A stretch of DNA of 64,000 bases from Clostridiales bacterium (GTDB lineage Bacteria; Bacillota; Clostridia; TANB77; CAG-508), in NCBI GenBank assembly GCA_003534295.1, contig DPDV01000008.1:146132-210131 (forward strand). Reading direction: 5' to 3'. The notes beneath the pieces were generated by a model. It was given only the letters and a program-made list of their open reading frames with translations. It made no database searches and had not been told where the DNA came from. Positions 46,085 to 46,543 of this stretch are shown here, one piece after another. A program made the position numbers and the translations under genes. The first letter of the stretch is position 1, and every line of letters starts with the position of its first letter.

Positions 46085-46089
46085 AACAC

Positions 46090-46475
46090 AGGTCCATCGG
46101 TTGTACCGATGAACCTGCGGGGAGATTTCCCTCTCCCAATCTTATTTAAATAAGATTGGGAGGTTTCTTTCCACACCTTCAAAGAAGAGGTGGAGGGATT
46201 CTACCTCTGCCGGCACGTTTACTGCCCTGTAAACGTGCTTTACTGTCCTCGGAATGCCTATGAAATAAAGGCCTTCCGAAGTTTTTGCCTTCAGGTAATC
46301 TCCTGAAGGTTGGTCAGGAGTCATTACACAAATGTAACACTCCTTTTTTTGACTCTCCCTTTTTGTGCAGATCACCTCAATCTGCACGCCTTTGCAATTG
46401 CAATTTGCCATATTGTTTCTCCTATCTTGGTTTCTGATGTCTTCCATGATGCAACCCCCTCAAGGAAAATCACCT
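46090..46475 (-). ncRNA. candidate structured ncRNA or hairpin-array transcript (about 390 nt) with unusually high GC
   Basis: A consensus promoter (TTGACA at 46505-46510, 17-nt spacer, TATAAT at 46482-46487) drives a minus-strand transcript. It contains about ten perfect or near-perfect hairpins. It ends at GGTTCATCGG-tacaa-CCGATGGACC followed by TGTGTTTT (46091-46115). Confidence 0.45.
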
Positions 46476-46481
46476 ACATAT

Positions 46482-46510
46482 ATTATAACGTTTTTGAGCT
46501 CATTTGTCAA
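46482..46510 (-). promoter_or_regulatory. perfect-consensus sigma-A promoter driving the hairpin-rich transcript
   Basis: TTGACAaatgagctcaaaaacgtTATAAT. Confidence 0.6.
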
Positions 46511-46543
46511 ATTATGTCGATTTTTGCCAATTAAGAACTGTCC

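Follow-up and report, generated by a model that had tools for sequence, protein, structure and literature searches.

The stretch of DNA analysed here, a 64-kb window from the genome of an uncultured gut Clostridia species, carries at positions 46083-46510 what reads as a minus-strand transcription unit of ~395 nt (locus 1), with a promoter, ~10 stable hairpins and an intrinsic terminator, located between a DAP_DH-like gene upstream and the convergent mscL gene. Its features, as predicted from the sequence, are the following:

46528-46550, minus strand: palindrome CAATTAGGGAC-A-GTYCYTAATTG (inverted repeat I6), just past the stop codon of the upstream DAP_DH-like gene and ~20 nt upstream of the -35 element
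46482-46510, minus strand: promoter of the SigA/sigma-70 type, with TTGACA at 46505-46510, a 17-nt spacer and TATAAT at 46482-46487, matching the consensus at 12/12 positions
46412-46475, minus strand: 5′ leader, with hairpin H0 (46436-46474) and the Shine-Dalgarno (SD) sequence AGGAGA (46418-46423)
46142-46411, minus strand: coding sequence (CDS) of an 89-aa orphan protein (MANCNCKG...LPILFK), taken from the list of open reading frames, with its TAA stop inside the loop of H7
46241-46470, minus strand: hypervariable allelic cassette, covering the end of the leader and the first ~57 codons, with hairpins H1 to H4
46365-46387, 46316-46344, 46288-46309 and 46247-46281, minus strand: cassette hairpins H1, H2, H3 and H4, respectively
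46083-46240, minus strand: near-invariant 3′ domain, with H5 to H9 and the U-tract, encoding the last 33 codons
46213-46238, 46170-46194, 46133-46162, 46120-46131 and 46087-46119, minus strand: 3′-domain hairpins H5, H6, H7, H8 and H9, respectively
46087-46119, minus strand: terminator, consisting of the 15-bp hairpin H9 and the U-tract, found by a terminator scan

An initial annotation, made from the letters alone, had pointed out the promoter, the terminator and the ORF with its ribosome-binding site AGGAGA, and we recovered each of them, with a conserved start codon at 46411. The promoter is the sole perfect match to TTGACA-17-TATAAT in the region and is unchanged across all fetched strains, the exception being one substitution in the -35 element of L103; transcription would start near 46475. 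Promoter and intrinsic terminator are both conserved which, going by sequence, delimits a discrete transcript of the kind expected of a dual-function small RNA. H9, and H7 when read on the plus strand, also resemble terminators for the convergent mscL. On the plus strand, a separate terminator had been proposed at 46317-46350, yet this element is H2 read backwards beside an A7 run of QKK codons; the terminator scan did not call it, and allele E possesses neither the hairpin sequence nor the A-run. Since no plus-strand promoter was found inside the locus, any antisense RNA would be read-through from mscL.

The leader begins with an invariant UUUUCCU that is able to pair with the SD sequence. 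The latter is predicted to be sequestered in alleles C, D and E (probability of being unpaired ≤0.05), about half open (~0.5) in allele A, which is the allele of the window, and open in allele B, whose SD sequence is weak (GAAG). With masking in only three of five allele classes, we rejected the idea of a conserved SD-masking riboregulator.

As the initial annotation had noticed, the GC content of the locus (0.45 to 0.46) is well above that of its surroundings (window mean 0.278, SD 0.043; genome 0.28), and we count 10 inverted repeats in 46000-46600, including every example listed there; the hairpin centres are spaced ~35 to 45 nt apart, not ~75 bp. The minus strand has a minimum free energy (MFE) of -158 kcal/mol versus -103 ± 5.6 in dinucleotide shuffles (z = -9.8; plus strand, z = -10.8), making the locus the most extreme 300-nt structural outlier of the window. 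Seven of the ~10 hairpins fall within the CDS, whose MFE of -97.6 compares with -66.9 ± 4.7 after synonymous permutation and -42.6 ± 4.5 after recoding with the codon usage of the genome (z of about -12 for the latter). The variable part is over-structured in every allele, with z-scores of -3.6 to -7.4 against synonymous permutation. These controls retain the codon content of the gene itself, and the excess is therefore more than an effect of GC content. The earlier view that the RNA structure is not incidental is thus borne out, both by folding 4 to 7 SD beyond what the protein allows in every allele and by compensatory and G-U changes.

In the alignment of alleles A to D, 95% of the cells at paired positions can pair, compared with 38 to 45% in slid controls. 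Double compensatory changes are seen at two pairs (G-C to A-U in H2 and U-A to G-C in H4), along with many G-U intermediates in stems that are valid on the minus strand only. Such double changes are sparse (2/126 pairs), since most stems do not vary between those alleles that can be aligned. Note that RNAalifold run over all 18 sequences under-calls the structure, since the hairpins of allele E are out of register with the others; pair counts are from the A-to-D subset, and allele E was folded on its own. The hairpin centres are identical across alleles A to D and lie within ~5 nt of these positions in allele E, though the stem sequences differ. The allele comparison shows compensatory and G-U changes maintaining the predicted hairpin scaffold; divergent alleles use other bases to rebuild their hairpins in the same places, sometimes at the expense of amino-acid changes.

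As the initial annotation had anticipated, this scaffold belongs to no known RNA family: a search of 45000-47500 against Rfam 15 returned nothing at E ≤ 1, and no family reached its gathering threshold anywhere in the window. Allele E produced ~20-bit chance matches only, on the wrong strand, and ARAGORN found no tmRNA or tRNA. On the strength of Rfam and ARAGORN, we rejected RNase P, tmRNA, SRP and 6S RNA, the large ornate RNAs (OLE, GOLLD, ROOL, raiA and HEARO), a riboswitch and the RNAIII family. A CsrA-type sponge presenting GGA motifs in loops was also dismissed, there being ~11 to 12 such motifs by hand count versus ~8 expected from composition, with no preference for loops.

An ORF running through all these hairpins had been judged implausible as a coding sequence. 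This argument proved wrong, because the evolutionary evidence shows the ORF to be a genuine coding sequence whose predicted peptide is under purifying selection. The ratio dN/dS is 0.17 to 0.26 in the variable part, at a dS of 0.33 to 0.53, and both third-position and synonymous bias are confined to frame 0. Comparing alleles A and E, which differ at ~48% of nucleotides, frame 0 contains 0 stops versus 2 to 11 in the other frames, and the BLOSUM62 score is 79 to 90 in frame 0 versus 16 to 28 in the other frames and 20 ± 4 for residue shuffles. Indels in the intact alleles are in frame, and the SD sequence and ATG are conserved. The initial annotation had stated that conservation of the ORF with synonymous-only variation would make it a protein gene; what we observe agrees with this in spirit, the variation being synonymous-biased rather than synonymous-only. 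On this evolutionary evidence, the locus also holds the embedded translated ORF expected of a dual-function small RNA. The frame is broken in 4/18 distinct sequences (L105, L106, L017 and L018). Either some strains can do without the protein, or at least without its C-terminal third, or the breaks are errors of assembly; L106 has the look of an error-prone long-read assembly.

The protein is hydrophilic and cytoplasmic-looking, has no signal peptide, and is encoded with a GC3 of 0.49 against a genome median of 0.16. Its description as Cys-rich does not hold across alleles, between which the cysteines are not conserved. AlphaFold tentatively predicts, at low confidence (pLDDT of ~63), a five-strand beta domain at residues 9 to 64 followed by a disordered tail. 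Foldseek searches with two AlphaFold models, both of that pLDDT, returned nothing significant (against the PDB, one model had a best E-value of 0.25), and the protein matched no entry in Pfam, NCBIfam, PADLOC or PHROGs (best E-value in the latter 0.085).

All carriers of the unit are strains of one species, with flanks that are ~99.5% identical. Against this background, nucleotide diversity rises to 0.13 to 0.18 in the central ~250 nt (0.08 to 0.18 over 46241-46470) versus ~0.005 across 3.8 kb of flanks, and locus 1 is ~25-fold more variable between strains than its neighbours; the flanking genes are 97 to 99.8% identical between those same contigs. There are at least five allele classes of mosaic composition. 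N-terminus type and H2 type are found together in all four combinations, as are H5 type and H8 type. The strain comparison shows the central ~230 nt to consist of several alleles, apparently old and recombining, between an invariant promoter and leader and the near-invariant 3′ domain. In this domain, synonymous divergence is 0.09 to 0.20, compared with 0.33 to saturated in the cassette. It exists as two haplotypes, and which of them a sequence has is independent of its cassette; one sequence, L018, is entirely devoid of H7. Recombination with the flanks, instead of constraint on the RNA, could explain why the 3′ domain varies so little.

Outside this species we found no trace of the unit. We used the DAP_DH-like neighbour to fetch 80 syntenic loci of related species and searched them with BLASTN, with GC scans and with a covariance model built on the 3′ domain (R1), each time without a find; six of the loci have GC-rich spots, which correspond to tRNAs, other repeats or genes unrelated to the unit. 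Locus 1 is all that R1 detects. No homologue turned up in GTDB representatives, IMG/VR or phage and plasmid collections, and a profile search of 1.84 billion protein representatives recovered the family itself and some spurious eukaryote-type repeat proteins, which we discarded as remote homologues, their scores being inflated by summed repeats. The unit is single-copy in the window, occupies the same core-gene slot in every long contig, and has neither repeats nor an integrase at its flanks; one 520-nt contig (L016) links it to a different upstream sequence.

A second orphan gene, 4.5 kb away, shares the characteristics of locus 1:

41580-41828, minus strand: 82-aa orphan ORF (locus 2), between a peptidase M50 gene and rpsF

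Its protein shows no homology to that of locus 1 and has no Pfam domain. Locus 2 has a GC3 of 0.44, structure z-scores of -5.3 to -6.5, and a dN/dS of 0.18 to 0.32 at a dS of 0.35 to 0.62. Divergence is 8 to 22% across the ORF versus 0 to 2% in the flanks, and the encoded proteins fall into 24 mosaic clusters. That an unrelated locus displays the same features points to a class of gene in this genome rather than to an accident.

What kind of gene, then, is locus 1? It is best read as a small gene restricted to one species, not as an ncRNA: a strongly transcribed, structured mRNA for a polymorphic small protein. We lean, tentatively, towards a real protein gene in which the structure of the mRNA is itself selected, and in which the RNA has no independent function in trans. 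A strict dual-function regulatory RNA of the RNAIII or SR1 type, whose invariant 3′ domain in particular would act in trans on mRNAs or titrate an RNA-binding protein, seems unlikely to us, if worth serious thought. It would fit the layout of a variable 5′ and central part joined to a conserved multi-hairpin 3′ domain with its own terminator, and synonymous sites in the last 33 codons that are at least 3 to 4 times more conserved than those of the cassette (A versus E, pS 0.18 versus 0.79). The RNA, moreover, stays intact in the frame-breaking variants, and in RNAIII, too, an ORF is embedded in a long RNA with many hairpins, of which those at the 3′ end do the pairing (PMC4152353). However, no target can be named; the ORF fills ~70% of the RNA, unlike in known dual-function small RNAs; H7 is missing from L018; and a role as mscL terminator, or the recombination with flanks considered above, could account for the 3′ conservation instead. 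In alleles A to D, most of the C-rich stretch AAUCCCUCC is predicted to be base-paired, and a C-rich (UCCC) seed in the 3′ domain is unsupported, as the partition function leaves little of it free to pair. That the locus is a purely structured ncRNA with a fortuitous, untranslated ORF appears highly improbable, being already disfavoured by the evolutionary tests. While extreme folding and GC, the want of a protein family, a weak AlphaFold model, frameshifted variants and codon usage far from that of the genome would all suit such an RNA, it leaves unexplained the frame-specific synonymous bias with dN/dS of ~0.2, an ORF that stays open with protein similarity in frame 0 alone across ~48% nucleotide divergence, the in-frame indels and the conserved SD sequence and ATG; nor does Rfam know such an RNA. 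Long GC-rich "intergenic" regions of AT-rich genomes also often prove to be unannotated or short ORFs (PMC6429828); in one genome, these made up ~1/3 and ~1/4, respectively, of the unknown intergenic regions (PMC6429828). Among the options of the initial annotation (ncRNA, hairpin array or foreign small gene), a small gene with foreign-looking codons came closest, but no donor or homologue exists outside the species in the collections searched. We accordingly hold it to be very improbable that locus 1 is an ordinary foreign or mobile small gene of recent acquisition, with the GC content of its donor, incidental hairpins and repeated imports. The GC3 contrast, the absence of the unit from the syntenic slot in 80 related species and the divergent upstream junction of L016 speak for such an origin; structure above synonymous-permutation controls, compensatory changes in stems and the residence of all alleles in one core-gene slot free of flanking repeats or integrase speak against it.

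A separate issue is the source of the diversity, on which any of these readings of the gene's role could be combined with a locally raised mutation rate instead of old, selected alleles. Candidate processes are mutagenesis that is associated with transcription or arises from template switching at quasi-palindromes, in a unit that would be very highly transcribed and is rich in hairpins, or else a diversifier of the retroelement type. Consistent with this, the diversity spike coincides with the transcribed region, locus 2 as a second structured, transcribed small gene has the same pattern, and template switching can create or perfect hairpins and is stimulated in highly transcribed DNA (PMC8794818, PMC3820800). 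Yet substitutions are no denser in stems than elsewhere (0.21 versus 0.25), and their spectrum is ordinary and transition-dominated (A/G 17, C/T 12, G/T 8, A/T 5, A/C 4 and C/G 2). The 3′ domain is nearly invariant despite being transcribed and hairpin-rich, and the discrete mosaic alleles suggest recombination between old lineages. Overall, we regard a raised rate as improbable. A diversity-generating retroelement (DGR) or targeted hypermutation was rejected, as the spectrum has no adenine specificity, there is no stem bias, and the 64-kb window contains neither a second copy of the cassette nor a template repeat.

Returning to a protein gene with a selected mRNA structure, we propose that selection would act on two layers at once, the 89-aa peptide and the hairpin scaffold of its mRNA. 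We assume the RNA to be abundant because its promoter is a perfect consensus. The hairpins may lengthen the life of the mRNA and/or tune translation, with the invariant UUUUCCU masking the SD sequence in the three allele classes noted above, and the 3′ domain may double as a bidirectional terminator for mscL. The RNA may also carry a function of its own, which would make it a dual-function RNA. Balancing or diversifying selection on an interaction that is specific to the strain would maintain the allelic diversity; candidate partners would be a phage, a mobile element or the protein recognising its own RNA. Loci 1 and 2 may even be examples of "structured hypervariable microgenes", a class not described before, in which small, strongly expressed orphan genes would retain an RNA hairpin scaffold and a small beta-domain protein while their alleles diverge deeply and recombine within one species; we think this doubtful. 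If true, the two loci would point to a system of strain specificity that works with no known component of defence or quorum sensing. Examples would be a protein able to recognise the RNA hairpins of its own allele, and a decoy or immunity module, made of RNA and protein, that is directed at phages or mobile elements.

Several known systems resemble locus 1 in part. VR-RNA of Clostridium perfringens, at ~0.39 kb near the size of the unit, and SR1 of Bacillus subtilis are likewise Firmicute regulatory RNAs with small ORFs; neither shows homology to locus 1 by any search, and VR-RNA is under VirR/VirS control, whereas the promoter here is a consensus one of the housekeeping type. SR1 is a 205-nt RNA encoding the 39-aa peptide SR1P, and the hyp7 ORF of VR-RNA has 72 codons and is without translation or function data (PMC4152353), whereas evolutionary evidence of translation exists for the 89-aa ORF. 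RNAIII of Staphylococcus aureus has 514 nt, 14 hairpins, a small translated ORF and a conserved, regulatory 3′ hairpin domain (PMC4152353). It shares with the shorter unit of locus 1 its own promoter and terminator, multiple hairpins and a 3′ domain that is conserved while the rest varies. By contrast, there is no sequence or Rfam similarity between the two, and the 26 codons of hld (delta-haemolysin) are a small part of RNAIII, whereas the 89 codons here take up most of the RNA and run through seven hairpins. RNAIII is the agr effector, while locus 1 has no quorum-sensing genes nearby and no known trans target, and its cassette is hypervariable within a single species.

The hypervariable region of agr and the comCD and comQXP pherotypes are usually explained by balancing or frequency-dependent selection on a specific molecular interaction. 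Like locus 1, they are short segments with deeply divergent, recombining alleles between near-identical flanks in one species. They differ in comprising secreted peptides, processing enzymes and receptors, where locus 1 has a single protein with no obvious partner gene, and in that RNA structure is co-conserved at locus 1. Type I toxin mRNAs (hok, bsrG) have small ORFs on very stable, folded mRNAs with a 5′ element that sequesters the SD sequence, and are often strain-variable. The small ORF on a heavily folded mRNA, the variation between strains and, as predicted for three allele classes, SD sequestration by a 5′ element are found here too, but the 89-aa protein is hydrophilic and predicted to be all-beta instead of a short membrane peptide, and the locus has no antisense promoter. 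Lastly, locus 1 is just what GC-IGR ncRNA screens select, namely a lengthy "intergenic" region that is structured and rich in GC while the genome around it is poor in GC. A sizeable share of their candidates hold a real ORF, as here (PMC6429828); unlike in the usual short-ORF calls, extensive structure lies inside the CDS.

Locus 1 is a counter-example to the notion that too many hairpins mean a sequence cannot be coding, with a CDS and a dense RNA scaffold visibly co-selected, and it calls for caution in gene calling and in GC-rich-intergenic ncRNA screens. The 25-fold spike in diversity is limited to a small cytoplasmic orphan gene of an otherwise near-clonal, genome-reduced commensal and recurs at locus 2; if real, it would mean that balancing or diversifying selection has a target in uncultured gut Clostridia that has so far gone unrecognised. 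Genes that are outliers in both GC3 and structure z-score provide a simple genome-wide signature by which more such genes could be sought, and the alleles form a natural series in which the mutual constraints of RNA structure and protein sequence can be studied.

The I6 palindrome upstream of the promoter is invariant in nearly all strains. It is missing from L016, whose homology begins ~10 nt upstream of the -35 element. The two C-to-T changes that the window has in it give G-U pairs on the minus strand only, and the palindrome probably forms a hairpin in the RNA where the mRNA of the upstream gene ends.

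Flanked by a DAP_DH_C-like oxidoreductase gene (46544-47662, minus strand) and the mscL gene that converges on it (45572-46084, plus strand), the element has all of its parts on the minus strand, where by their sequence they form a compact promoter-to-terminator unit:

46510..46482, minus strand: promoter TTGACA-17-TATAAT, a 12/12 match to the consensus
46411 (conserved start) to 46142-46144 (stop), minus strand: 89-aa ORF, with the SD sequence AGGAGA at 46418-46423
46119..46087, minus strand: terminator called by a terminator scan, a 15-bp GC-rich hairpin followed by a U-tract

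Promoter and terminator are as the initial annotation had described them, and the 10 inverted repeats found between them include every example it had quoted. The centres of the hairpins, numbered H0 to H9, are about 35-45 nt apart rather than ~75 nt. The GC elevation was borne out as well (up to 0.45-0.46 versus a window mean of 0.278, sd 0.043, in 300-nt windows). For the ~397-nt minus-strand RNA we computed an MFE of -158 kcal/mol, a z of -9.8 relative to dinucleotide shuffles (-103 +/- 5.6), and the element tops the entire 64-kb window in structure, also after regression on GC. Its plus strand likewise folds well (z -10.8 against dinucleotide shuffles). The plus-strand terminator proposed at 46317-46350 proved to be H2 in reverse beside an A7 coding run: the terminator scan made no call here, and both the hairpin sequence and the A-run are missing from the most divergent allele. 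Nor did we find a plus-strand promoter within the locus for the proposed overlapping antisense transcript. In alleles C, D, and E, the SD is predicted to pair with an invariant 5' UUUUCCU (P(unpaired) <= 0.05), whereas it is not so masked in B or in allele A, the one carried by the window (P(unpaired) about 0.5).

Several observations concern the neighboring genes. Read on the plus strand, H9 and H7 resemble terminators for mscL and are the sole candidates for this role, so that mscL would have a 3' UTR running antisense to the element's 3' domain. The MscL homologue itself carries a lysine-rich C-terminal extension of ~65 aa ending in a zinc-ribbon-like CPFC...CPHC motif, which is unusual for MscL. 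On the other side, the stop codon of the DAP_DH-like gene is directly followed by a 23-nt palindrome without a U-tract (46528-46550; CAATTAGGGAC-A-GTCCCTAATTG in most strains), located ~20 nt upstream of the -35 box. The two C-to-T changes that the window has here leave G-U pairs, which hold on the minus strand alone; this suggests that the upstream mRNA carries an RNA hairpin at its 3' end, and not that the site is a DNA operator.

It had been thought implausible that a protein would be encoded through all these hairpins. Comparison of the allele classes, termed A to E, contradicts this and identifies the 89-aa ORF, as far as evolutionary tests can tell, as a genuine coding sequence. Substitutions between alleles prefer third codon positions, and an excess of synonymous changes is seen in frame 0 alone; in one example, frame 0 had 10 synonymous and 11 nonsynonymous codon changes, compared with 4 and 15 in one of the other frames and 3 and 17 in the second. 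A dN/dS of 0.17-0.26 (Nei-Gojobori; dS 0.33-0.53) in the variable part points to purifying selection on the protein. Even between groups A and E, where ~48% of aligned coding nucleotides differ (pS 0.79, pN 0.41), frame 0 is open in both with indels in frame and reaches a BLOSUM62 local score of 79-90, as against 16-28 in the other two frames, which contain 2-8 stops within the variable part, and 20 +/- 4 for residue shuffles. SD and ATG are kept across alleles, the exception being a weak SD in allele B. The cysteines that the initial annotation had remarked on are not conserved.

The frame is broken in 4/18 distinct sequences, by a -1 change within an A9 run (L105), several indels in what resembles an error-prone long-read assembly (L106), a +2 insertion (L017), or a clean deletion of 45 nt, located between short direct repeats (CTCCC), that takes out H7 and with it the stop codon (L018, ~3290). 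At codons ~44-47 of the allele E CDS, the A-tract measures A9 in L002, L101, and L107, A8 in L105, apparently A10 in the assembly P0008, and A11 in L106, differences that shift the frame and could reflect either slipped-strand phase variation or homopolymer sequencing or assembly error.

Folding tests and the same comparison argue that the RNA structure is also under selection. The ORF has a GC3 of 0.48-0.49 (genome median, 0.16), and its CDS, at -97.6 kcal/mol, folds far more stably than under within-gene synonymous codon permutation (-66.9 +/- 4.7; z -6.5) or recoding with the codon usage of the window (-42.6 +/- 4.5; z -12). The variable part by itself is over-structured in all alleles tested (z -3.6 to -7.4). 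Among the twelve A-D sequences that can be aligned, 95% of pair cells hold canonical pairs (38-45% in a slid-partner control), and hairpin centers are identical relative to the ATG (+35, +81, +112.5, +147, +185.5, +229, +263.5, and +308). Double compensatory changes convert G-C to A-U in H2 (five sequences) and U-A to G-C in H4 (three sequences), and many one-sided stem changes pass via G-U, leaving pairing valid on the minus strand alone; with 2/126 pairs doubly changed, the shallow depth limits covariation statistics. Some compensating changes alter the protein, examples being a Pro-to-Leu replacement in H2 and a Ser-to-Ala replacement in H4. Allele E places H1-H3 within ~5 nt of the A-D centers using other stem sequences, and its H4 is weak; H1 is displaced by 2-3 nt against an unshifted protein alignment, which means that the coordinated changes in its arms also change residues.

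No known RNA accounts for the element. The region gave no Rfam 15 match at E <= 1, the whole window none at the gathering threshold, and the divergent allele just ~20-bit chance matches on the wrong strand; ARAGORN called neither a tmRNA nor a tRNA. Among 5.8 billion proteins, the ORF has seven homologues at cluster level, all "hypothetical" and 0 with a Pfam domain. We assembled a locus set from the DNA of these seven plus twelve metagenome loci retrieved with a conserved 26-nt pattern, and every sufficiently long contig shows the gene order gatB, DUF4364, DAP_DH-like, element, mscL, DUF4116, yyaC-like. A profile search of 1.84 billion protein representatives returned no further genuine family member; GTDB species representatives, IMG/VR, and phage and plasmid collections contained no relative; and in 80 related species, whose loci were obtained through a neighboring gene (protein identity 81% or lower), the slot was empty by BLASTN, GC profile, and a covariance model of the 3' domain. 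By these searches the element is confined to a single species of uncultured gut Clostridia, for which one carrier record is labelled a Clostridiaceae MAG (GCA_025992345.1). In the 520-nt metagenome contig L016, homology begins ~10 nt upstream of the -35 box, and positions 1-115 join the element to upstream sequence unlike anything else fetched, either a second genomic context of the promoter-to-terminator unit or a chimeric assembly.

Within the species, variation is concentrated in the element to an unexpected degree. In contigs that carry different alleles, the flanking genes match the window at 97-99.8% identity (typically 99.5%), whereas the central part of the element shows 77-90% identity only and allele E aligns over just 72 nt. 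In sliding windows over 3.8 kb, diversity rises from ~0.005 in the flanks through 0.06-0.08 in adjoining 50-nt windows to 0.13-0.18 at 46250-46450. Near-invariant parts are the promoter, the leader's initial ~40 nt, and the 3' ~160 nt from H5 through the terminator, and synonymous divergence in the last 33 codons (0.09-0.20) is higher than in the flanks. Since N-terminus and H2 types occur in all four combinations, as do H5 and H8 types, the deep alleles are mosaic and recombine inside the element. Three features argue against mutagenesis of the DGR type or targeted to hairpins: the spectrum is ordinary and transition-dominated, stems are not enriched for substitutions (density 0.21, elsewhere 0.25), and the window holds no template repeat, that is, no second cassette copy. 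Together with the order of codon positions (3 > 1 > 2), these features favor old allelic lineages separate from the genomic background. A locally raised mutation rate would also concentrate diversity here; we rate it improbable as the source, a judgment partly separate from what the gene is.

The contigs with the element are mostly under 2 kb, as may happen when alleles coexisting in one sample break assembly graphs at the hypervariable segment. Nextera adapter sequence (CTGTCTCTTATACACATCT...) makes the terminal bases at the L002 start and the L003 end artefactual. In L001 (3900-4156), everything 3' of the H5 loop is replaced; mscL, the DUF4116 gene, and an adjoining small ORF are gone, and next come the peptidase M50 and yyaC-like genes, which are inverted.

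What we say of function we infer from sequence. Tentatively, and with somewhat less than even confidence, we read the element as a structured mRNA that encodes a polymorphic small protein and has no separate function as an RNA. Transcription would be high, judging by the perfect consensus promoter; the hairpins might stabilize the mRNA and/or tune translation; the 3' domain could be a two-way terminator that also serves mscL; and the polymorphism might be upheld by selection, balancing or diversifying, that acts on some strain-specific interaction. The 3' domain may also act at the RNA level, and a true dual-function RNA strikes us as unlikely but worth serious consideration. Of the ncRNA reading in the initial annotation, the selected structure stands, while the ORF is equally real by frame-specific tests, making a pure ncRNA very improbable. 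Scarcely more credible is an incidental foreign gene; the atypical GC3 speaks for it, the constant gene order and the lack of relatives in the phage and plasmid collections against it.

The closest functional analogues are dual-function RNAs of Firmicutes: RNAIII (514 nt, 14 hairpins, the 26-codon hld ORF, and a conserved 3' hairpin domain), SR1/SR1P, and VR-RNA of C. perfringens, whose 72-codon hyp7 ORF is untested (PMC4152353). The element shows neither sequence nor covariance-model similarity to RNAIII, SR1, or VR-RNA, placing it outside these families, and differs in that its ORF takes up ~70% of the RNA, running through seven hairpins. Its allelic pattern is similar to that of specificity-group loci such as agr and comCD, but it has no partner genes. 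We class it as a lineage-specific form of "structured or dual-function small-gene RNA". The initial reasoning parallels ncRNA screens of GC-rich intergenic regions; in one genome screened like this, unannotated protein genes made up about a third of the unknown intergenic regions, and short ORFs were present in about a quarter (PMC6429828).

When 79 non-overlapping ORFs of >= 75 aa in the window were scored for GC3 and for structure against synonymous permutation, two were joint outliers, the 89-aa ORF (0.49, -6.5) and an 82-aa ORF (0.44, -5.3) at a second locus:

41580-41828, minus strand: 82-aa orphan ORF, between a peptidase M50 gene and rpsF
to ~42010, minus strand: leader, about 180 nt
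about 41530-41575, minus strand: terminator

Its promoter (TTTACA-17-TG-TATCTT) is weaker than that of the first locus, and its protein, an orphan without a Pfam domain, falls into 24 mosaic clusters. Hypervariability between strains is repeated here: the ORF diverges 8-22% and the flanks 0-2%, with dN/dS 0.18-0.32 and dS 0.35-0.62. Structure z against synonymous permutation is -5.4 to -6.5 in each allele, and folds read by eye show compensatory changes in stems. Low-confidence models (pLDDT about 63) predict a small five-strand beta domain for each of the two proteins, and a fold search with both models gave no significant match. Because the second locus has the whole feature set and the two proteins have no detectable relationship, the first is one member of a class within this genome.

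Another kind of structured insert occupies this slot in a related species: downstream of the DAP_DH-like gene, L079 (4150-4400) carries two tandem GC-rich units of ~85 nt each (TTTTTAGCCTCGAYACGTCACTCTTGGTCGGG...CCGGTCTCGTTTAAAAAATA), with a long inverted repeat (CGCCCAAGAGGGACGCCCCCTTTTTGGGC...) around them. In L083 (~4150-4500), L074 (~3100-3400), and L035 (~4150-4400), also from related species, the stretch downstream of this gene contains small ORFs on the reverse strand that are GC-elevated, have strong SDs, and could be additional GC-rich small genes of this clade.
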